DNA of 64,000 nucleotides, from positions 290 to 64,289 of the forward strand of contig CACWNR010000009.1 of NCBI GenBank assembly GCA_902762355.1. Reading direction: 5' to 3'. The notes beneath the pieces were generated by a model that was given only the letters and a program-made list of their open reading frames with translations, was not told where the DNA came from and did no database searches. The position numbers were made by a program, and so were the translations under genes. This document shows positions 23,494-39,177 of the stretch, piece after piece. Position 1 is the stretch's first letter; every line of letters starts with the position of its first letter. The DNA is from an uncultured Bacteroidales bacterium (lineage in GTDB: Bacteria > Bacteroidota > Bacteroidia > Bacteroidales > Paludibacteraceae).

Positions 23494-24713
23494 CAGAAAC
23501 TATAGCCTACGCCTATACCGAGAATACCTTTGAACTGCACGCGCTCTTTTTCAACGGGATTACCGCCTTCCTCGGCAGCGATCAGCGTGCCCGGATAGTA
23601 CTTGAGGCTCGTTTGAAGCGTTACCTGCAGACATTTGAGGAACTGATAACTCAGCGCTACATCCCAGTCTACATCGAACATTCCGAAGAAACGGTTGTTG
23701 TTCGAATAATCGAAGTAATAGCCCGCTTGATTATAATCATCCCTGCCTTTACCGGGGTTGTTCTCCAGCCATTTCTCATACACATTGAATCCCTTGCCTT
23801 GGTACGGGGTGAAGAGAGCCAGCGTCGTGCTGAGCTTGAAATCCTTGTAGGCATATGCAATAGAGCCCTTGAAGCTTAAACCGAACTCCGCACGGGCATT
23901 ACGGTATAACTTGTCACCGTTCTCGTCATACTTGACCGTTCCGTGCTCATCCTGAAGCATACTGCGCAAGTCCAGATGTTTGTCCATCAGCTCCTGATAA
24001 ACAGCCTGTGTCCAGTCGGCTTCCGTCTGCGAGGTGTTGCCCTCTAACCACATCTGTTTGGTATAACGCTCGTTCCATGTATTCCCGGTGTATGCCGTGG
24101 TAATACGCCCCGCAATAGGCGACAGGTATACCGAGAAATCCGCACCCTTCACGCTGTGCTTGTAGTCAATACCGACAGAGATGTCGGTGTACGAAGGTGC
24201 CAGCCATTTTGAGACGATCGGGTTATAGCCGTCCTGATATTGACGACCCAGCGCATACTGGCTCTGGAACGAACCGAGAACAGTCAGGTAGAAATCCTTA
24301 TGGAACTCCCATCCGAATTTCGTAGCGAGTTTGATATTATCGCTGGATTTCTGGAACGGATCCTCTTTCTGCTGAATCCATGTCAATCCAAAATCGGTGT
24401 CGAAATTCGTCTCCCATGCAATCGCATCCTTATGATAAAGTAAATGCAACTTGGCATATGCTATACCGTTCACATTATTCTTACCGCCGGCTGTCCAGTT
24501 CACGAGCCCTGTGGCAGCGGCGTTAAGGCCGACAATGCCATCAAACTTCCAGGCTTTCTCACCCGCTTCAAGTTTCTTCAGATCGTCACCTGCTTTAGCA
24601 GCTGCATCCGCGTTCTTGGTTACTTTGGCTTTATCCACCTCTTGCGCGGTCATTGTGAGCGCTGCCAAAAGGCATAACGCTACAGATAAAAATTTCTTTT
24701 GCATTGTATTCAA
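23493..24713 (-). CDS. DUF3078-like outer membrane beta-barrel protein
   Basis: Signal peptide, NWTAGGKNN motif, C-terminal ..GVGYSF. Confidence 0.6.
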   Translation of the reverse strand: MNTMQKKFLSVALCLLAALTMTAQEVDKAKVTKNADAAAKAGDDLKKLEAGEKAWKFDGIVGLNAAATGLVNWTAGGKNNVNGIAYAKLHLLYHKDAIAWETNFDTDFGLTWIQQKEDPFQKSSDNIKLATKFGWEFHKDFYLTVLGSFQSQYALGRQYQDGYNPIVSKWLAPSYTDISVGIDYKHSVKGADFSVYLSPIAGRITTAYTGNTWNERYTKQMWLEGNTSQTEADWTQAVYQELMDKHLDLRSMLQDEHGTVKYDENGDKLYRNARAEFGLSFKGSIAYAYKDFKLSTTLALFTPYQGKGFNVYEKWLENNPGKGRDDYNQAGYYFDYSNNNRFFGMFDVDWDVALSYQFLKCLQVTLQTSLKYYPGTLIAAEEGGNPVEKERVQFKGILGIGVGYSF

Positions 24714-24762
24714 TAAAATTGTTTGTTATACGTTTGTTGTTCGGTTTTCTAAAAAAACCGCA

Positions 24763-24770
24763 CAAAGGTA
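24763..24770 (-). promoter_or_regulatory. -7 box TACCTTTG
   Basis: Minus-strand GTACCTTTGTGCGG about 50 nt upstream of the ATG at 24713. Confidence 0.5.
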
Positions 24771-24887
24771 CTAAAAAAAAATCATATACGCAAATAAATA
24801 ATGTACGCGCGCGAAAAAATTTGCCATTTGTGTCAATTTTTACACATTTTTTTTGAATATCTGCACATACATGTGCAAAAAAAGCAG

Positions 24888-24895
24888 TAATTTTG
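24888..24895 (+). promoter_or_regulatory. -7 box TAATTTTG
   Basis: GCAGTAATTTTGCAGCG about 60 nt upstream of the ATG at 24954. Confidence 0.55.
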
Positions 24896-24953
24896 CAGCG
24901 TGATTTAATATCCCCTAATGTGGGCATATAAACGAAACTAAAAATACACAAAT

Positions 24954-27900
24954 ATGAGAAACATTAGATTGTTTACGTTAGCAATTGCTTTACTTTGTAC
25001 TTACAGCGTATTTGCTGCAACAGAGAAAAACCCCGTACCATCCAATTCTGATGTAGTTATTACCGGCACCAGTTATTCTATCCCTTCGACCTATGTTGCA
25101 GGAGCTGGAACTATGGTGTCTCCGATGGCAACAAAAGGCGTAAAGTTTCGTGCCAACCGCAATGCCTCCGGAGTAACTAATGGTGTTGAATTTACTGTCA
25201 CTTCCGGCTACACTATTTCGAGCATAGAATTCTGTGGTACAACCAATGATAACACGGCAACAGGCAGTGTTACTGGAGTATATATTGACGGGACCGACGA
25301 TGCTCATAAGTTGGCAAATACTCCCACCGTTACCATCCCCAACAAGAAAGCATCATCCGCTGCTACATTTACCATTAGCGGATTTAGTGCTACGCAAAAA
25401 GTCATTGTTGCGTTTAGTGGTGCCAACCAAATCAATTTGGAATACACCGTAACGTATTCTACCGGCGGTGGTGAAGAGCAGACAGAGGTTGCTGTAACGG
25501 GTGTTTCTCTCAATAAAACATCGACGACTATCGACGTGGGTAATTCAGAGACTTTGACGGCTACGGTGTCGCCCTCCGATGCTACCGATAAAAGTCTGAC
25601 TTGGACGACAAGTAACTCAGCCGTAGCAACCGTCAATAACGGTGTTGTCACTGCTGTTGCGGCCGGTACTGCAACGATTACCGCCAAATCGAATGCGGAT
25701 AACACGAAGTCTGCTTCTTGCACGGTGACAGTACCTACTCCTTCTTCGGATCCGGTGGCAGTAACAGGTGTCACCTTAAGCAAAACGGCTACTTCGCTCA
25801 ATGTAGGTGCTACGGAGACCTTAACTGCTACCGTTCAGCCAGCTAACGCTACAAATAAAGCGGTAAACTGGAGTAGTGACGCTCCCACAGTAGCAACGGT
25901 TTCCAATGGAACGATCACCGGTGTTAGTGCAGGTACGGCCCATATCACCGTCACAACGGTGGACGGCAACTTCTCTGAACAATGTACAGTAGCCGTTTCT
26001 GCTGCTTCAACGAATGTTGAAACTACTTTGGATTTACATGAGCCCGGCTTATACGAAGCAGATGAATTTGAAGGCGGATACGGACTTGCCTTAGCAACAT
26101 TGACCGAAGATAACGTAACTCGTGAATATGAGGTTTATTATCTATCCAACAACAATGGAGATTTCATCTCTGCCGGAAATCCGCAATATGACATTGATAA
26201 ATCACAAGCTCCCGGACATAAATTAGCGTCAGGCAATGGTGGTAGTGTAGATGCCGGTTGGGTTAAGACAATTGGCAGTGGTAACTTCACCAGCAAGGCA
26301 CCATTGAATATGGGCGAATTCCAGGCTGCAAATAGTAACTATATGAACATTAATGAGACCCACTATATTGAATTGCACATCAAAGGTTTCGATCAATTCT
26401 CTATGATTGCCAATGATAAAAGTACCGTTCAACCAAATAAAACGGGGCAGGACAATAAAGCGGGTGAACACTTGAAAATTTTTATTGATGACACCCCGCT
26501 TGAACGCGAAGCGTCAGATATGAAGACCGAGGATCCGTCCCTCTTCCGCTTCCCCATTTCCACAGGAGAGCACGTTATTAAGATTGCCGGTACAGGAAGT
26601 ACCAATAACCGTTTCCGTGCCTTCTCTCTCCGCGTAGCGCAAGAGCCGAGAACGAAATACGTTGATGGTAACGACAGTACACAGGAAGTACTGCAAACCA
26701 CAGCGCCGCAAGCGGTTTATTATTATACGAAGTATAATAGCCTTGGTGAGACACGTCTGGACTGGGATGGTGCACAAGGAACAGGCTTTACGTTGGAGAC
26801 CGTGGGTTCAAGTAAGGTAGGCGATACCTTGGCTTTGGGAGGAACGGCGCAATGCCCCGTAGGAGAGTATCATTATTTCGTAAAAACCTATTTCAACGGT
26901 GTAGAGACCAGTAGCGTACCGGGTAAGATCAAGGTAACATCGCTGATCAAGCCTAAAGGTGCAACAAGATGCGAGGCATACCAGAACGAGGCCATCGATG
27001 ATATCCGCTTCACCTACTATGCGCTCTCAGGAGATGATATCACGTTGACTTGGGAGAACAACAAGATTCCGGCAGGTATCAGCGGACACGGCGCTAACGG
27101 TACCTATATTATTTCCGGTACTCCGACTCAGGTAGATACGTTCGTTTATACCATTTCCGTTTTAGGCGGCAACAGCATATCCGATACCCTCTTTGTAGAT
27201 AAGTTGGATCTGGGTAACGATCCTATTCTGTACCTTTACAAGAACGATGGTGCCAAAGCAAAGGACGGTACCTACAAGTACCTGACTTCAGCTGGAGGCG
27301 GAAATAAGAATCTCGTTGCCCGCAAAGCAAAAGCAGATGGTAAGCGTTCAACAGACCAATACAGCAAGTATAAATGGATTTTGATCTCCGAAGATGTCGA
27401 TGCCAACAATGAAGAAGTATTGGCAATTGCCCGCGGAGAGGTGGATCTTCCCGTCCTCAACATGAAGTCCTTCACCTACGCTCCGGGTCGTTTGAACTGG
27501 GGAGAACCGGATAATGGTTCGTTGACAGATAGAGGTCGTTTCATTACCGTTTATCGCGATGACCACCCGATCTTCCAAGCGCTGAACAAGCATAAAGGCG
27601 ATAGTATCATGGTTCTGGATCCGGTGGAAGGCAAGGGTCTGATGCCTATTGATATCAATTATGGCGGTGTCTGTCTGGCAACTGCTTTGACCCGTGATAT
27701 CGACGACTACTACGGTGACGGCCCGGAAAGAACCATTATGCACGAGGTAGAGCGTTTGAACGGCAAGAAATACATCTGCTTCCCGATCGGTATGGAAGGC
27801 AGCAACCACTTGACCGCCGACGGCAAGAGACTGCTTAATCAAACGATCACCTACCTGCTCAGCAACGATGCTACGATTAAGGCTCCTTCGCTGGCTATTA

Positions 27901-33654: not shown

Positions 33655-33677
33655 GTCGAGTATTTTGAAAATCGCTG

Positions 33678-33685
33678 CAAAGATA
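33678..33685 (-). promoter_or_regulatory. -7 box TATCTTTG for pdxJ
   Basis: Minus-strand GTATCTTTGCAGCG about 25 nt upstream of the ATG at 33654. Confidence 0.5.
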
Positions 33686-33730
33686 CAACAAAAATTGCAT
33701 ATATGCAAGAAAAAACAAAAAAATCACAAT

Positions 33731-34078
33731 TTATTGTTCAAAGGGGTGTGCTTGTTTGTAATCGTGAATGAGCGAATTATATTTCCACGCACGGACAGTG
33801 GTGTAGGTTTTGCCGTTGGAGGCGATGTGGTTTGCTGCCTCGAAGTCGGCAGCCAGTTGCGCCTTGGCTTCCGGAGAGGTTAGGAGTTTGAGTTGGGAAT
33901 TGGCATATTTAAAGGCAGCAGAGTTCCATTTCTGGCGAGGAGACTGATTCTTTTGATAGTCTTCGTCACGTTCACGATAAAATTGTCTGCCATTTCGCAT
34001 GTAAAAATAACCTCTGTCGCGGTTATACGTCTTACCGTGGATCTGTTCGATACCTGAAGATGCTATTATTCTTGACAT
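33731..34078 (-). CDS. hypothetical small basic protein
   Basis: 115-aa ORF with its own -7 box (34245-34252) and a leader of about 160 nt. I recognise no family. Confidence 0.45.
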   Translation of the reverse strand: MSRIIASSGIEQIHGKTYNRDRGYFYMRNGRQFYRERDEDYQKNQSPRQKWNSAAFKYANSQLKLLTSPEAKAQLAADFEAANHIASNGKTYTTVRAWKYNSLIHDYKQAHPFEQ

Positions 34079-34224: not shown

Positions 34225-34244
34225 TCAAAGTCCCTTTTTCGGGT

Positions 34245-34252
34245 GCAAAGGT
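34245..34252 (-). promoter_or_regulatory. -7 box TACCTTTG
   Basis: Minus-strand AGTACCTTTGCACC upstream of the repeat-containing leader of ORF 33731..34078. Confidence 0.5.
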
Positions 34253-34540
34253 ACTGCTTTTCTTTGATATATGCAAATAAAATCCACTCAAAATATCATT
34301 TTTTTTAAAAATTGCATTATCCCACAAATTTTTGGAGCCAAAACATGCACTATCCCCAAAATGTTTCGAAGCAAGATATACACTGAGCGTAAAATTGGTA
34401 GGAGAGAAATATTCTCTGAGCGCAAGATTTACATCATGTCCCTCTGTTGGATGACATCCAACTCAATGAACGATGTAACCGGAATCAGATTCCGGGCTAA
34501 TGAACGAACTATATTAAAAAAGTGACAAAAAAATGATTTT

Positions 34541-35536
34541 TTATGCTAATGTTGATACATATCCATCTATATATGGTCGATTGTTAGTAACAACAGCGAA
34601 AGCTATGCGGATAAGTTTATTAGCGACAGCAATGATAGCAGCTTTGCCGGATTTGCCTCTCTCGCGTAAACGTACGAATGTATCTCGACAAGCCGCATTA
34701 CACTTTATAGATGCAACCGCGACAATATACAATTGACTGCGTAGATGTGTATCTCCGTTACGATTAATGTGACCTTTGAAATTAACTGACGTACCTGATT
34801 GCTGGTAGGTGGGACAAAGTCCTAGGAACCGCGAGATCTGTTTAGCACTGCTAAAGTACGTAAAGCCTCCTGTTGCCATTATGAGTGCAGAAGCGATATT
34901 TTCGCCGATTCCCTTAATGGACGTGAGTAACTCCATTTGGCGCTTAAACTCCTTGTTAGATAGATGGGTAATCTCGTCTTCTAACTTAGAAATTTGCTTA
35001 CGCAGGAACTTAATGGTTTGCTCGGTTGCAACTTTAGCCGTAGGGTCTTGCTTGGGTAGAACCGACAAGGAGTGCTGTAGATTGATCATCATCGTAAGTT
35101 GCTTCTTAAGTTGCCGAAGGACAGTGCGTTTCTGCTTTAGCTGAATGATGCTCTCTGACGGGATTTTATAGGGCGCTGGCTCCATTTTCTCACCATACAT
35201 AGCAATCAGTTTAGCATCGATCTCGTCTGTCTTGGTAGTGGACAACATGGCACGAGCAAAATGCTTAATCTTCTGCGGGTTCTCCATGCTAACGGTAATA
35301 TTAGCCTGTTGAAGCAGATAGAGGAGAAGCATACTATAGTTGCCGGTTGCCTCCATCACACAATGACATTCAGCCGGAAGCGATTGAATGAACTTACGCA
35401 CACCACTAGTGGTGTTAGGGAACTTTTGGGTTTTGTAATCTCCCTTAGTCGGATAGGCTGCTACGAACGAATCCTTGCTTACGTCAATACCAATGTAGGT
35501 CATAATGCTATTTGATTTATTGCGCTGATTAAACAT
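34541..35536 (-). CDS. IS110-family transposase/recombinase
   Basis: YIGIDVSKDSF (DEDD RuvC-like N-domain), C-terminal Transposase_20-like ..SIKGIGENIASALI..GLCPTYQQSG. Alternative start at ATG 35503. Confidence 0.9.
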   Translation of the reverse strand: MFNQRNKSNSIMTYIGIDVSKDSFVAAYPTKGDYKTQKFPNTTSGVRKFIQSLPAECHCVMEATGNYSMLLLYLLQQANITVSMENPQKIKHFARAMLSTTKTDEIDAKLIAMYGEKMEPAPYKIPSESIIQLKQKRTVLRQLKKQLTMMINLQHSLSVLPKQDPTAKVATEQTIKFLRKQISKLEDEITHLSNKEFKRQMELLTSIKGIGENIASALIMATGGFTYFSSAKQISRFLGLCPTYQQSGTSVNFKGHINRNGDTHLRSQLYIVAVASIKCNAACRDTFVRLRERGKSGKAAIIAVANKLIRIAFAVVTNNRPYIDGYVSTLA

Positions 35537-35690
35537 CGATACATCTGAACACTATCGTTGCAAATGCGGGGTCTGTGCCCTAATGAACTATCCAGTTTTT
35601 AGATGTATAAAGTATGGGGGCAAAACGTCCATTACGGTCTTGTGACAAACAAAGGATCGGCCTTACTCCATACTTTAGATGTCAAATCGG
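35504..35690 (-). ncRNA. candidate IS110 bridge RNA / structured 5' leader
   Basis: The -7 box at 35694-35701 predicts a leader of about 185 nt. A 10-bp stem (35608-35617 with 35668-35677) and a 6-bp stem (35541-35546 with 35601-35606) each enclose about 50-55 nt. ACATCTAAA occurs twice. Confidence 0.35.
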
Positions 35691-35693
35691 CTG

Positions 35694-35701
35694 CAAAGGT
35701 A
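35694..35701 (-). promoter_or_regulatory. -7 box TACCTTTG inside the IS110 element
   Basis: Minus-strand TACCTTTGCAGCC with an upstream TTTG at about 35725. Confidence 0.5.
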
Positions 35702-35739
35702 CAAAAAATATTTTGAATATACAACAAAGGACAGTTAGT

Positions 35740-35969
35740 GTTGGCAGGATGTGGCGGAGCGGTATCCTGCCAACACGGAACACCGGAATCCCGAAGGGAG
35801 AGCGGGCTATCCGATTGCCCTGCAATGGAAGAAAAATATTGCGGTGATACAATCACCGCGAAATGGACATACATTATGAACCAGAATACAATTTCTGGAA
35901 ATGGAAGAAGGTGGGATGTCGGAATTATATTCCGACGCAATAGACAAAGCTATGCCGATTGACAATCGG
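35740..35969. repeat. cluster of REP-like short hairpins
   Basis: Stems at 35740-35774 (11 bp), 35841-35859 (8 bp), 35881-35898 (6 bp), 35918-35936 (8 bp, CGGAAT tat ATTCCG) and 35955-35969 (6 bp). Confidence 0.7.
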
Positions 35970-35980
35970 TGGAATACAAA

Positions 35981-36009
35981 GAAAAACACCACGCTTTGCA
36001 GGCGTGGTG
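35981..36009 (-). terminator. rho-independent terminator of the island cassette
   Basis: Minus strand CACCACGC-CTGCAAA-GCGTGGTG followed by TTTTTC, 25 nt after the stop at 36034. Confidence 0.75.
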
Positions 36010-36033
36010 TGAAGTTAAATCGTCGTTGAGGAA

Positions 36034-36720
36034 TTACCAATCTTCCTCGCTGTCAGTGTTCTTAGGAGCGTAATGCTCGTTTAACCACGTAAGATAATAT
36101 GACGGATAACTCATCGTCTTTGCAAGCACATTGATCATTGCCTTTGCATGGACGTCTCTATCGTTTTTAGAGAAGTTCTTATAGTGCATAAACGGGTCTA
36201 AACGAGTGAGAGAATAGTTGAATAACTGATTCCCTATATGATAAGTCAAGTATGGTACATTAACTTTCATCTTCACTCTGTCGTCTTTGAACTTGAAATC
36301 AAAGATGATGTCTGCATCGAAGAAATATGTTGAGAGCATTACCTGTTGATATGCCAAATTTTGGTAATGTCCTTGAAAGAAAATGGACTTTTCTGTGCTT
36401 CCTTGTACTACGTTCGCACGGACGGTAGGAGTGAATTTGAAATAGTACTGCAAGAAATCCAGCGTCACATCTTTTATCTTTGCAATATCCAAGGTGTCGG
36501 ACGATTTAATTACAAACTCATACTCTATTTCTCCTTTCTCGTTGATACGATACGCGGCACTATCCACAATTGATTTTGCCCACGCTACATCCGAAGGATG
36601 ATTTTGCATAACACGGTTCCATTGTGCGATAGTTTCAGAAATCTTATCGCACGTGAATTGTTGTGCAAAACAACTGATACTTAGCCAACTAAGGCACAAG
36701 ATAAAAAATGTTCTTTTCAT
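36034..36720 (-). CDS. secreted hypothetical protein (DUF4468-like by pattern only)
   Basis: Signal peptide MKRTFFILCLSWLSISCFAQ, AT-rich codon usage, last gene of a 3-gene cassette. Confidence 0.55.
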   Translation of the reverse strand: MKRTFFILCLSWLSISCFAQQFTCDKISETIAQWNRVMQNHPSDVAWAKSIVDSAAYRINEKGEIEYEFVIKSSDTLDIAKIKDVTLDFLQYYFKFTPTVRANVVQGSTEKSIFFQGHYQNLAYQQVMLSTYFFDADIIFDFKFKDDRVKMKVNVPYLTYHIGNQLFNYSLTRLDPFMHYKNFSKNDRDVHAKAMINVLAKTMSYPSYYLTWLNEHYAPKNTDSEEDW

Positions 36721-36725
36721 TATCG

Positions 36726-37406
36726 TTAATTTTCTGTTATTCCTTTCATCATAAAATTCAGAAATTCACTCCCTAGGCGGCTTCGTTTATATAAACGCAC
36801 ACGTTCAGGATTACGGAATCGAATGTTTCCCCGTCTTCTACTGGCCATTTTCATGTATTCTTCACCATCAATCTCATCAACGAGACCAAGATATTTGAGA
36901 TTCAATAGATGCACAGGAATTATATCTGAATTATACTTACTTCCTATTTTCTCAACTAGTTGTCTCTCGTATATATAATTCTCAACGGCATTAAGAATGT
37001 ATATACTAAAATAATCTAATCGGTCCAGATAATTTGCAAATATTAGTTTGTTGCTGCAATTCAAACTATCAGGATGGATGCAAGCAGCTAAAAATGTAGC
37101 ATATAGTTTGCGTTTCTGTGCATTGAATTCATCTTTCGACTTTTGTAGTATCGGCAAAATATCATCCGTAAATGTTTGTATGTCAATATATGGCTTTATT
37201 CCTATTTGTCTCTCAATGCAATCTATTTTCAAATTTAACTCATTTAGAACCTCAATAATATTATTAACTTGTGAAGTGTTAATACCATCGCAGAAAGCAG
37301 TTATAGTAGCAGCTATAGGATTGGGATTGGCAACAAACTTTAACAACTGAATTGATATAAATTCAGCTCCAGTTGTTTTTGAAACTCTAATCTCTCCCAT
37401 AATCAA
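36726..37406 (-). CDS. hypothetical cytoplasmic protein (weak Abi-alpha-like feel)
   Basis: 226-aa ORF with no signal peptide, AT-rich, 6 nt from the downstream gene and 15 nt from the upstream gene. Confidence 0.5.
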   Translation of the reverse strand: MIMGEIRVSKTTGAEFISIQLLKFVANPNPIAATITAFCDGINTSQVNNIIEVLNELNLKIDCIERQIGIKPYIDIQTFTDDILPILQKSKDEFNAQKRKLYATFLAACIHPDSLNCSNKLIFANYLDRLDYFSIYILNAVENYIYERQLVEKIGSKYNSDIIPVHLLNLKYLGLVDEIDGEEYMKMASRRRGNIRFRNPERVRLYKRSRLGSEFLNFMMKGITEN

Positions 37407-37420
37407 AATATATCCGTGAT

Positions 37421-38215
37421 TTAGTCTTTGTAATCAATAATCATTTTAATCAGTTCCAGCTTGTCTGGTTCGATCTCTAAAATTTTCTTAATCATAGGCT
37501 TTATTTTCCAATGTCTCAATTTTCGTTCTATTCCTAATTGTTTCTTCTTTATCGTTTCTTCGTTAACATATTGCTCAGATTGATCCACCCAACGCAAATT
37601 TGTCGCGTCATTATTAAGCGGGTTACTATCTATATGGTCAACTTGTTGCTTGTTTTCAGGATTTGGAATAAAAGCTTGTGCTACTAATCTATGTACAGCA
37701 TAATGATGATTGTTTCCTTCCGTATCCGTAAGAAGAATATATCTATACCCATGAGCCATATGCCCATATATGATTTGATTTGTCACCTTTACATATATTC
37801 TCCCTCTATTACTCACTTGATGAGTATTATATCCTTCAATATCTTTCCACTCCTCTCCTTCAAGAGATGCTTTAATTTTAGGAAGTTTTCCTCCATAGTA
37901 ATCACGAAGATAATCGCGAACGGTATCTACCCCACGATTATATTTTTCCGCAATTTCTTTTATGGTTAATCCACTTTCATATTCTTGTTTAAATGATAAT
38001 ATCTCTTTTTCTCCCAAACGTTTTTGCTTTTTGTTTCTCACCTTGCCTTCTTCACGCAATCTTTTTGCAACAATATCAGTAGCGATAAAACTTAATCCAA
38101 GTTTATCACGAATGATCACATGGGCTAAATAGCTGATATTATTTTCCCATGTATCAATAAAAAACTGCTCTTGTTCTTCTGTGAGAACGATAGGTGTTTT
38201 CCTTTCTGGTCTCAT
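37421..38215 (-). CDS. HTH + NUMOD4 + HNH_3 homing-type endonuclease
   Basis: EEWKDIEGYNTHQVSNRGRI (NUMOD4); HRLVAQAFIPNPENKQQVDHIDSNPLNNDATNLRW (HNH_3); N-terminal LTIKEIAEKYNRGVDTVRDYL is HTH-like. Confidence 0.8.
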   Translation of the reverse strand: MRPERKTPIVLTEEQEQFFIDTWENNISYLAHVIIRDKLGLSFIATDIVAKRLREEGKVRNKKQKRLGEKEILSFKQEYESGLTIKEIAEKYNRGVDTVRDYLRDYYGGKLPKIKASLEGEEWKDIEGYNTHQVSNRGRIYVKVTNQIIYGHMAHGYRYILLTDTEGNNHHYAVHRLVAQAFIPNPENKQQVDHIDSNPLNNDATNLRWVDQSEQYVNEETIKKKQLGIERKLRHWKIKPMIKKILEIEPDKLELIKMIIDYKD

Positions 38216-38266
38216 ATCATTAATTATTAAATAATCGCTTGAAGAAAGAGAATAAGCCTGTTAAAA

Positions 38267-38512
38267 TTATTTTTTTAGATAATGTCTTAATTGTATAATA
38301 TCTATACCAGGAGGTAATGTCATTTCAAAAGACAGATTGTGCTCCGCTAGCCATTGTTCTATTTCCTCGATAGATTTCTGACCCATTGAGCGAGCGGCTC
38401 TCAGATCATTACGTCTACATTGTACAAGATCCCAAACGGTATTAATATTAGCATAGTATAATCCACGTTCTGTACGTGTAGAGAAATGCAGTGCACTATT
38501 TGTGTCTATTAG
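38267..38512 (-). pseudogene. stand-alone RNA polymerase alpha C-terminal-domain-like ORF lacking an ATG/GTG/TTG start
   Basis: Open frame LIDTNSALHFSTRTERGLYYANINTVWDLVQCRRNDLRAARSMGQKSIEEIEQWLAEHNLSFEMTL.. aligns position-for-position with E. coli alpha-CTD ([46 protein letters not shown]). The frame opens right after a stop at 38513-38515. Confidence 0.55.
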
Positions 38513-38631
38513 TCAATCGAGGCTCTGCAAAGCCCAACAACAAGTAATATACACGAATAGTCCACGCTGAACACGTGGAACTTTCGCTTCTTACTATCTT
38601 GTTGTTTGTGAAACTTGCAGATTTCGATTGG
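38513..38631. other. nested-stem structured element (unknown RNA or DNA structure)
   Basis: Four nested stems: 38514-38520/38624-38630 (7 bp), 38525-38530/38615-38620 (6 bp), 38536-38544/38598-38606 (9 bp) and the inner hairpin 38561-38566/38574-38579 (6 bp). Confidence 0.5.
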
Positions 38632-38744
38632 CAAGATAAAAAGCTAAAGTTCAATATTTTCAATATATCTGCGCAACACTTTGCGCTTATCCTTCCTGTT
38701 TAACGTCGGGAAGCGACGGCCGGTTTTTACGCTGGCGGGGCAGC

Positions 38745-38757
38745 GAGGGGTTATTTA
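38745..38757. repeat. left arm of the perfect 13-bp inverted repeat GAGGGGTTATTTA
   Basis: Exact reverse complement of 39178-39190. Confidence 0.85.
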
Positions 38758-38945
38758 TCGTTATAGTGCTCCTCTAATTGAATGACGAGCACGTAAACAT
38801 ATTCATCGTAAATGTCGTAAATAATACCGCGTACATCATAGACTCGCAAAGTATTGTTCCATTTCTGCTTTACTATTGCACCGAATCGTTTCACCACGTT
38901 CGGATTCTTTCCGCGCTGCGTTAATACGACGACGCAAGGCGGGAG
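38751..38945 (-). pseudogene. RelE/ParE-like toxin remnant (no start codon, overlaps the antitoxin-like ORF out of frame)
   Basis: Frame reads ..NTLRVYDVRGIIYDIYDEYVYVLVIQLEEHYNDK*, resembling the C-terminal RVGDYRIIY.I.DE.VYVL.I core of RelE/ParE toxins. The frame is open only from 38945. Confidence 0.35.
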
Positions 38946-39069
38946 TTATCTCCTGCCGAGCCTCTTCTTCTGCAACATCTTTGCGCGTGAAAGTCCAGCC
39001 CATGGTTCGTACCATTTGCTCAAACCAACCTATTTGAGCAGTCGGAACTTGTAATGTCACTGTTGCCAT
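38836..39069 (-). CDS. putative antitoxin-like small protein
   Basis: 77 aa with a -7 box at 39096-39103. N-terminal MATVTLQVP..GW and C-terminal ..EMEQYFASL resemble small Bacteroidetes antitoxin partners. Assigned mainly by context. Confidence 0.4.
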   Translation of the reverse strand: MATVTLQVPTAQIGWFEQMVRTMGWTFTRKDVAEEEARQEITPALRRRINAARKESERGETIRCNSKAEMEQYFASL

Positions 39070-39095
39070 AATGGTATTATTTTTATTTTACGCTG

Positions 39096-39103
39096 CAAAA
39101 TTA
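39096..39103 (-). promoter_or_regulatory. -7 box TAATTTTG
   Basis: Minus-strand GTAATTTTGCAGCG about 27 nt upstream of the ATG at 39069. Confidence 0.5.
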
Positions 39104-39155
39104 CATAAAATATTTGATATATGCAAATAAATTTGCACAATTCAAAAAAAAGCAG

Positions 39156-39163
39156 TAAATTTG
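39156..39163 (+). promoter_or_regulatory. -7 box TAAATTTG (nadK promoter candidate)
   Basis: GCAGTAAATTTGCAGCC. A second TAAATTTG lies at 39128-39135. Confidence 0.45.
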
Positions 39164-39177
39164 CAGCCGCAAATGAG

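Follow-up and report, generated by a model that had tools for sequence, protein, structure and literature searches.

The window analyzed here is a stretch of 64,000 nucleotides (nt) from an uncultured Bacteroidales bacterium (Paludibacteraceae; contig CACWNR010000009.1), in which a 2.2-kb segment carries three adjacent genes, ORF1, ORF2, and ORF3, that an earlier note on this DNA had taken for a candidate defense or homing cassette. The locus is a defense-island fragment made up of a recurrent pair, an HNH endonuclease gene (ORF1) and an Abi-alpha-like gene (ORF2), plus a passenger gene (ORF3), and the three genes do not form an obligate three-component system. On balance, we regard the segment as probably a defense or selfish-nuclease islet in which ORF1 is an endonuclease, ORF2 an autonomous Abi-alpha-like factor, and ORF3 a passenger. 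The array comprises the following features (lengths in amino acids, aa):

37421-38215, minus strand: ORF1, 264 aa
36726-37400, minus strand: ORF2, 224 aa from the ATG at 37400 (an alternative TTG at 37406 would give 226 aa, 36726-37406)
36034-36720, minus strand: ORF3, 228 aa
35976-36010, minus strand: intrinsic terminator closing the three-gene array, placed by its hairpin and folding energy

The three-gene array and the neighborhoods of its relatives

The three ORFs are genuine genes, because intact full-length homologues of each (50–99% identity) are found on many independent contigs and because metatranscriptome contigs cover them. They are co-directional and, as the earlier note had proposed, end at a strong terminator, a GC-rich hairpin with a 9-bp stem at 36010-35986 followed by a T-run (folding energy -15 kcal/mol; z = -4.1 vs. 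shuffles). The 5-nt gap reported between ORF2 and ORF3 is confirmed, whereas the 14-nt gap reported between ORF1 and ORF2 applies only if ORF2 is counted from the TTG; every homologue begins at the equivalent of the ATG at 37400, so that a 20-nt gap, and a protein of 224 aa rather than the 226 aa first given, are more likely. The genes also lie in a low-GC island, as had been noted (0.338 for ORF1, 0.330 for ORF2, and 0.384 for ORF3, vs. 0.50–0.51 across 20 kb on each side), and were acquired horizontally. A second, shallower dip in GC content is present in the window at 24001-27000 (0.434–0.456 vs. ~0.50).

Neighborhoods were compared across ~90 loci, obtained by contig look-ups for relatives of ORF2 and ORF3 and for the neighboring antitoxin, by a genome scan, and by a metagenome scan with ORF1; 27 reference proteins were mapped onto them by tblastn. 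The complete triple ORF1-ORF2-ORF3 occurs only in L050, L052, and L054, which represent the same locus and are 99.6–100% identical to the window, and a conserved three-gene order was not found in unrelated genomes on this map. Relatives of ORF2 and ORF3 otherwise have different partners, and the idea of one three-gene system is not supported; the lack of co-occurrence elsewhere, which the earlier note had named as refuting it, applies to the triple. Co-occurrence holds for the ORF1-ORF2 pair, which recurs in four contexts, namely that of the window and three others (percentages are identities to the window genes):

L016-19 and L058: u72-u148-DUF723/RNase_T-ORF1 (99%)-ORF2 (79%), then a TetR gene
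L027 and L028: Abi_2, a 291-aa gene combining helix-turn-helix (HTH), Sigma70_r4, and RNA polymerase alpha C-terminal domain (alpha-CTD) regions, ORF1 (49%), ORF2 (82%)
L029: DUF723/RNase_T-ORF1 (49%)-ORF2 (82%)

The 20-nt spacer between ORF1 and ORF2 is identical across all four pair contexts, including those with an ORF1 of only 49% identity. Of 11 distinct contexts, 10 have a nuclease gene that lies 0–24 nt upstream of a co-oriented ORF2 relative or overlaps it; the exception is L020-22, in which only TnpB is nearby and no nuclease is adjacent. Contexts with other nucleases, including restriction-modification (RM) enzymes, are:

L001 and L024: ORF2 relatives 3–4 nt behind 1300-aa Type IIG RM enzymes
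L005: ORF2 relative 24 nt behind an MmeI-like RM enzyme, with AbiH also present
L008, L023, and L025: ORF2 relatives overlapping or 2 nt behind GmrSD_N-HNH genes

No conservation is seen among the genes that follow ORF2 relatives. A shared downstream partner was considered and rejected, since the 385-aa and 392-aa genes found there are unrelated on comparison. The 392-aa protein, encoded directly 3′ of the ORF2 relatives in two of these loci (L023:1044-2222 and L025:1249-2427), has an apparent PD-(D/E)xK-like motif (..HPDIVGVEF..YELKRK..) and no Pfam match, and may be another uncharacterized restriction-type nuclease.

The relatives of ORF3 are placed differently:

L026 and L030-32: behind an EcoRI-like methylase, GmrSD-HNH, and T5orf172 or a 144-aa protein
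L009: behind RNase_T-BRCT and a 245-aa protein
L012-14: upstream of DUF723/RNase_T
L015: upstream of RNase_T and an ORF1 homologue

ORF3 is absent from all three of the other ORF1-ORF2 contexts, and ORF2 is absent from all five of the other ORF3 contexts. The L015 contig, from a Paludibacteraceae metagenome-assembled genome (MAG), has relatives of both ORF1 and ORF3 within 1 kb, in the order ORF3 homologue, RNase_T, ORF1 homologue, and an unrelated 230-aa protein. DNA homology to other loci breaks at gene borders, with an ORF3 block at 36024-36741 and an ORF1-ORF2 block at 36738-38262. Because partners differ by gene and homology blocks stop at gene borders, sequence comparison indicates that the cassette is a mosaic of independently shuffled accessory genes, with the pair recurring as a module and ORF3 carried as a separate passenger. 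No integron-like attC or other conserved recombination site was seen at the cassette borders, where only gene-proximal bases are common.

The neighborhoods of the homologues include Type IIG and MmeI-like RM enzymes, GmrSD-HNH, AbiH, Abi_2, and T5orf172, and agree with the general defense-island setting that had been suggested for the cassette. Other ORF1 relatives are followed by an unrelated 230-aa protein or by DUF723/GIY-YIG/NUMOD-like proteins, and RNase_T-type exonuclease genes often come before them. In Prevotellaceae islands (L012:8799-13527, L016:928-2562, L060, L062, L067, L069, and L073), homing-endonuclease-like genes form a recurring pool; its members include a DUF723-RNase_T (DEDD) exonuclease fusion of ~544 aa, a 505-aa treble-clef/GIY-YIG/I-HmuI-NUMOD-like protein, a 324-aa DUF5677-like protein, and T5orf172 and RNase_T-BRCT proteins, and their order around ORF1 relatives is variable. 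The combination is not a named system, as had been supposed: no named multi-gene anti-phage system in PADLOC-DB v2 was matched (only ORF1 has a match, to the generic ‘HEase’ model), and the literature searched contained no paper describing these families or their combination.

The three encoded proteins

The ORF2 family is small. A word-indexed search of 5.8 billion proteins returned 33 relatives, an exhaustive hidden Markov model search of 1.84 billion representatives gave 56 clusters at 50% identity, and a scan of 185,579 species genomes using an alignment of close relatives (A1) found the family in only three Prevotellaceae MAGs. When 30 family members were scanned singly against Pfam and PADLOC, three distant members matched PF14337 (Abi_alpha/DUF4393) over essentially the whole model (P0072, 8.5e-6, 26.3 bits; P0070, 3.1e-5, 24.5 bits; P0069, 0.011, 16.2 bits; gathering score 29). 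No meaningful match was found in PADLOC-DB v2 for ORF2 or for any of the 30 members. As a substitute for profile–profile comparison, the link to PF14337 was assessed by scanning consensus sequences: the majority consensus of a broad family alignment (A3) matches model positions 8-190 of 196 at 31.2 bits (E 2.7e-7), which exceeds the gathering score, and the A1 consensus gives no match. Annotated Abi_alpha proteins were not reached when the word-indexed search was repeated with A3, and tblastn of P0072, the most Abi_alpha-like member, against plasmid and phage collections gave nothing usable. Taken together, the distant members and the A3 consensus support the hunch of the earlier note that ORF2 resembles Abi-alpha; ORF2 likely belongs to the Abi_alpha superfamily, although the gathering score of the curated family is exceeded only by the A3 consensus and ORF2 itself gives no match.

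ORF2 is predicted to be cytoplasmic, as had been stated. In its AlphaFold2 (AF2) model the protein is all-helical to approximately residue 110, followed by a helix-helix-helix-strand-strand unit, and Foldseek places residues ~118-218 among MarR/PadR-type winged-helix domains (probability 1.0, E ~0.04, TM-score ~0.5 on the target); the same winged-helix picture for the C-terminal half is obtained from a viral structure library. The most fitting description of ORF2 is a divergent protein of the Abi-alpha superfamily with a C-terminal half that resembles a winged helix.

The two halves of ORF2 have separate histories. P0002 and P0004 are 94–99% identical to the ORF2 of the window over residues 1-135 and 56–57% identical over residues 136-224 (99% and 57% for P0002), and the C-terminal half of P0002 is shared at 99–100% identity with P0015 and P0017 and at 92% with P0020; in the N-terminal half, these three proteins are only 60–62% identical to P0002. 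The two histories recombine where the winged-helix half begins, and which variant of that half is present does not follow the class of the upstream nuclease: P0002 is encoded behind HNH_3, and P0020 behind an MmeI-like RM enzyme. Domain shuffling of this kind is typical of defense genes, and argues for a putative recognition role of the C-terminal half.

ORF1 has the HTH-NUMOD4-HNH architecture assigned to it earlier, with an HTH region at residues ~50-107, NUMOD4 at 121-145, and HNH_3 at 172-215, the last containing the catalytic residues H194, N202, and N206. It matches HNH_3 (E 1.1e-10, 41.5 bits; gathering score 24.8) and NUMOD4 (E 2.3e-5, 25.0 bits; gathering score 23.4) in Pfam, with several weak HTH model matches across residues 69-127, and is also matched by PHROG HNH families and by the generic PADLOC ‘HEase’ (homing endonuclease) model (1.6e-24). 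Residues 122-254 align with the nicking homing endonuclease I-HmuI (PDB 1U3E; E 1.1e-14); the VDH..NN..NLRW motif is intact, and H194, N202, and N206 align with the I-HmuI motif. ORF1 accordingly combines HNH_3, including the catalytic His and metal-binding Asn, with NUMOD4. Its NUMOD4-HNH core has tblastn matches in 1524 phage records, including the I-HmuI region of SPO1. None of the phage records covers ≥80% of ORF1, from which we infer that the ~110-aa N-terminal HTH extension does not belong to the phage form. This N-terminal domain was also compared with the 291-aa alpha-CTD protein, and the two are not similar. I-HmuI-like homing endonucleases reside in an intron or intein, or are free-standing beside a cognate target gene in a phage or mobile genome; ORF1 is free-standing in a bacterial chromosomal hotspot with varying neighbors, and no intron, intein, or cognate target gene is evident at the locus. 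From its domains and catalytic motif, ORF1 is probably a free-standing I-HmuI-type HNH DNA endonuclease with nicking activity. It is an unremarkable representative of a known nuclease family, in a setting that is unusual.

ORF3 has a Sec-type signal peptide, which bears out its description as a secreted protein. In relatives, S, T, or A takes the place of the Cys at residue 17; a lipoprotein was therefore rejected, and cleavage by signal peptidase I after A19 is likelier than lipidation. In the AF2 model of ORF3 (predicted local distance difference test, pLDDT, only 74), the top three Foldseek matches are 4e6f_B, 4e6f_A, and 4jhy (E 3.9e-4 to 2.7e-3, probability 1.0, TM-score 0.40–0.56), the best being 4e6f, a DUF4468 protein of Bacteroides ovatus (E 3.9e-4), and 4jhy being a TBP-like protein of Parabacteroides distasonis. 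The predicted structure thus combines a TBP-like alpha/beta fold with an N-terminal signal peptide. Neither ORF3, nor its family consensus, nor its distant members match DUF4468 or any other Pfam family, and nothing significant was found for ORF3 in PHROGs, PADLOC, NCBIfam, or PDB sequence searches. By its model and signal peptide, ORF3 appears to be a secreted or periplasmic passenger gene representing a new sequence family with a known fold; a role in surface or superinfection exclusion is only a guess.

The chromosomal site and its transcription

The cassette is flanked by housekeeping genes, with secA, fmt, lgt, and nadK on one side, and a 115-aa ORF, pdxJ, exbBD, and tonB on the other. 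Features of the site beyond the three genes are:

34280-38689: strain-variable segment, containing the IS110 element, ORF3, ORF2, ORF1, and the alpha-CTD gene remnant; mean GC 0.379
38836-39069, minus strand: intact antitoxin-like gene, 77 aa, the conserved right edge of the hotspot and partner of yoeB
38751-38839, minus strand: yoeB toxin gene remnant with a 187-nt internal frameshifting deletion (blastn vs. L051, L055, and L056)
38267-38500, minus strand: remnant (last ~77 codons) of a 291-aa HTH_17/Sigma70_r4/RNA_pol_A_CTD gene
34541-35536, minus strand: IS110-family (RNA-guided) transposase gene (Pfam DEDD_Tnp_IS110 and Transposase_20; NCBIfam transpos_IS110, 6.8e-68)
39092-39135, minus strand: Bacteroidetes-type promoter (TTTG ... 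TAnnTTTG), the nearest upstream consensus promoter on the cassette strand

Sequence common to other strains ends at ~38690 and ~34279 (breakpoints vs. L051, L053, and L055-L057), with flanks that are 90–100% identical. After the same 77-aa antitoxin flank, the other strains carry different cargo: an 881-aa leucine-rich repeat (LRR)/Flg_new protein, which is a surface protein (L051), a 128-aa protein and an M4 peptidase (L053), a 233-aa protein (L055), or an RNase_T-BRCT gene (L056). By this comparison, the interval from nadK/antitoxin to pdxJ is a hotspot that varies from strain to strain. L051, L055, and L056 have an intact YoeB toxin gene (90–91 aa, Pfam YoeB_toxin). In the window the antitoxin is an orphan, and the 187-nt toxin deletion is shared with L053 and L057; as these carry different cargo, the deletion is independent of the cassette. 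The translation of 38267-38500, a C-terminal alpha-CTD-like helix-hairpin-helix, matches Pfam RNA_pol_A_CTD (9e-11). At the DNA level, this remnant is 78% identical to the end of the corresponding gene in L027, which in L027 and L028 stands before ORF1, at its 3′ end.

The IS110 gene is located between the cassette terminator and the left border of the variable segment. Inverted repeats at 35599-35617/35668-35686 and 35738-35750/35764-35776 give structure to its 5′ leader, which could encode a bridge or guide RNA; Rfam gave no match for this leader or elsewhere in the window. The element is multi-copy in metagenomes, with a depth above that of its flanks. The 115-aa ORF (33731-34078, minus strand), at the conserved left edge of the hotspot next to pdxJ, has its own promoter motif and no family match. 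A tRNA scan of the window was empty, and there is hence no tRNA-linked integration site. No integrase or phage structural gene is present near the cassette, and no relatives of the ORF2 and ORF3 families were found in IMG/VR (2.9 million contigs). The possibility raised by the earlier note, that the genes are ordinary prophage cargo, was rejected on the basis of the housekeeping flanks and the lack of viral relatives of ORF2 and ORF3 in IMG/VR.

Metagenomes from bovine, goat, and sheep gut or rumen contain the cassette. Judged by the promoter motifs and by where its homologues come from, the host would be a ruminal Bacteroidales, probably one of the Prevotellaceae. One rumen metatranscriptome contig spans ORF3 and the last 180 nt of ORF2, ending at 36019, 9 nt before the terminator stem, and other metatranscriptome contigs cover the rest of ORF2 and both halves of ORF1. 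The genes are co-transcribed, at least ORF2 with ORF3, as judged from these assembled contigs, which may contain DNA. On the minus strand, no TAnnTTTG (-7) motif occurs in 38216-39095, the nearest being that of the antitoxin promoter (39096-39103), and no terminator lies between ORF1 and this promoter; transcription of the cassette therefore probably reads through from the antitoxin promoter and stops at 36010-35976.

The promoter belongs to a repeated motif of ~44 nt with TTTG ... TAnnTTTG, found at 33674-33717, 34242-34285, 35690-35733, and 39092-39135 in minus sense and at 39131-39173 in plus sense, which stands upstream of pdxJ, the 115-aa ORF, the IS110 transposase, the antitoxin, and nadK. 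On metagenome contigs, these promoter-like repeats (34240-34280, 35690-35724, and 39092-39173) recruit thousands-fold depth and thousands of unrelated contigs, with spurious joints, and the layout of DNA reads is uninformative for cassette-free alleles.

Alternative explanations and known systems

Under the reading that we favor, a defense or selfish-nuclease islet with an autonomous ORF2, recombination would have assembled the 2.2-kb segment from a common pool of small accessory genes circulating in ruminant-gut Prevotellaceae/Bacteroidales. ORF1 would cut DNA as a free-standing I-HmuI-type HNH enzyme, probably a nickase, binding through its N-terminal HTH. ORF2, for which remote homology, predicted fold, domain swapping, and position behind nucleases are the evidence, would act as a phage-triggered abortive-infection or defense factor on its own protein chain, with the C-terminal winged helix as its variable recognition part, and would share an operon with a DNA-cleaving enzyme so that the two are transferred and expressed together. 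As the terminal gene of such arrays, ORF3, an unrelated secreted DUF4468-like protein, would ride along. Several points weigh against this reading. ORF2 has no significant direct match in Pfam, PHROGs, PADLOC, NCBIfam, or PDB sequences, and its link to Abi_alpha is transitive and close to threshold; its AF2 model is of only moderate confidence (pLDDT 71, with the first 35 residues, at <50, unreliable), and the winged-helix match rests on that Foldseek E of ~0.04. The sample of contexts is small (at least ~11 distinct for ORF2 and at least ~6 for ORF3), the RNA evidence has the weakness given above, and the placement of ORF2 behind nucleases is stronger than expected for an autonomous gene and may mean functional coupling.

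Such coupling is the substance of the main alternative, itself somewhat unlikely, a two-gene module in which the ORF2-family protein works with whichever DNA-cleaving enzyme is upstream and ORF3 is a passenger; ORF2 might then guard or sense the nuclease and trigger abortive infection when it is inhibited, might detect cleavage products, or might bind DNA as a regulator or help to set specificity. The nuclease found upstream in 10 of the 11 contexts, the spacer retained when ORF1 is swapped for a 49%-identical variant, and the DNA-binding type of fold in the C-terminal half are all consistent with it, but the upstream partners are unrelated in mechanism and structure (a 264-aa HNH_3 enzyme, ~390-aa GmrSD-HNH, and 1200–1300-aa Type IIG/L), which makes a specific protein–protein interaction hard to picture. 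The C-terminal variant also does not follow the partner, as P0002 (HNH_3) and P0020 (MmeI-like RM) show with their 92% identity there, L020-22 lack an adjacent nuclease, and characterized Abi-alpha works as a single gene (PMC6356687). It is improbable, though conceivable, that members of the ORF2 family act as a ‘nuclease rider’, an Abi-alpha-like winged-helix protein indifferent to its partner, which could be added behind any DNA-cleaving defense enzyme (HNH_3, GmrSD-HNH, or Type IIG/L RM) and would convert the state of that enzyme to abortive infection; the trigger could be phage inhibition of the enzyme, or the DNA ends or nicks that it produces, and specificity would be set by the swappable C-terminal domain.

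A purely selfish cassette, in which ORF1 as a homing endonuclease spreads itself and its neighbors by cleavage-induced gene conversion and ORF2 and ORF3 hitch-hike without a defense role, is quite improbable. The homology of the ORF1 core to phage homing endonucleases (the 1524 phage records and PDB 1U3E), a 99%-identical ORF1 in another genomic context (L016 and L058), and the position of ORF1 relatives amid DUF723-RNase_T, the GIY-YIG/NUMOD-like 505-aa protein, and T5orf172 would suit a mobile nuclease, but ORF2 relatives are also found without ORF1, behind bona fide restriction enzymes and next to AbiH or Abi_2, and therefore have selective value of their own there. The missing intron, intein, or cognate target gene, and the lack of a full-length ORF1 relative (≥80% coverage) in phages, also count against it. 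A dedicated three-component anti-phage system of ORF1, ORF2, and ORF3 is very unlikely and is largely refuted by the lack of co-occurrence: although tight spacing (20 nt and 5 nt), a single terminator, the transcript contig shared by ORF2 and ORF3, and the proximity of ORF1 and ORF3 relatives in the L015 MAG would accord with one, the triple is confined to near-identical copies of the same locus. ORF3 is missing from the three other pair contexts and ORF2 from the five other ORF3 contexts, gene order differs in L015, homology breaks at the ORF2/ORF3 border, and neither ORF2 nor ORF3 matches a PADLOC model.

As the three-gene system does not hold, the value of the locus is that of a lead and not a discovery, and its notable part is the middle gene, ORF2. 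The other two genes resemble known proteins. ORF1 shares with I-HmuI (phage SPO1 DNA-polymerase intron; PDB 1U3E) a NUMOD4 and HNH_3 core with VDH..N..NLRW, but has a ~110-aa N-terminal HTH domain in place of the C-terminal NUMOD3/HTH tail, and differs from I-HmuI and from free-standing phage NUMOD4-HNH_3 enzymes in lying outside an intron or phage and in being paired with an Abi-alpha-like gene. ORF3 resembles the secreted DUF4468/TBP-like proteins 4E6F and 4JHY in signal peptide, size class, alpha/beta TBP-like fold, and Bacteroidales distribution; it differs in sequence (9% identity), in an added N-terminal helical pair and long C-terminal helix, and in belonging to a family embedded in nuclease-rich islands.

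Abi-alpha (EF2833) is a single-gene, prophage-borne abortive-infection protein of Enterococcus faecalis that causes premature lysis by an unknown mechanism, and is mostly prophage-encoded, in Firmicutes (PMC6356687). The single-gene abortive-infection phenotype is known for EF2833 only. Like EF2833 of E. faecalis V583 prophage 6, ORF2 is a small, single, cytoplasmic, mostly helical protein (224 aa, vs. 272 aa for EF2833), and both Abi-alpha and the ORF2 family are found among other defense genes. The ORF2 family, by contrast, is limited to Bacteroidales (Prevotellaceae MAGs), is very rare (56 clusters), is not prophage-borne, and is nearly always translationally linked to an upstream nuclease. 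ORF2 is probably a new Bacteroidales variant of the Abi-alpha kind, a rare one whose consistent link to nucleases is not on record for Abi-alpha.

Abi-alpha proteins are widespread, act in abortive infection by an unknown mechanism, and have so far been studied only in Firmicutes prophages. The rare Bacteroidales branch adds three features, a winged-helix half, domain swapping at the border of this half, and a near-constant place behind diverse restriction nucleases, which are testable hints on how Abi-alpha-like proteins sense infection. If true, the ‘nuclease rider’ would amount to a second, modular layer of immunity, which has yet to be described for proteins of the Abi-alpha kind. A chromosomal hotspot is also documented by the locus, together with a shared pool of homing-endonuclease-like and defense genes in rumen Prevotellaceae, in which very few defense systems have been characterized. 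Restriction enzymes with an embedded abortive-infection partner exist, for example EcoprrI-PrrC, in which an Abi-type gene is part of a restriction-nuclease operon. To our knowledge, neither PrrC nor RloC has sequence or fold similarity to ORF2. By analogy, EcoprrI-PrrC and the ORF2 family would both have an Abi-type gene kept in a nuclease operon, with the difference that the partners of ORF2 belong to several unrelated nuclease classes.

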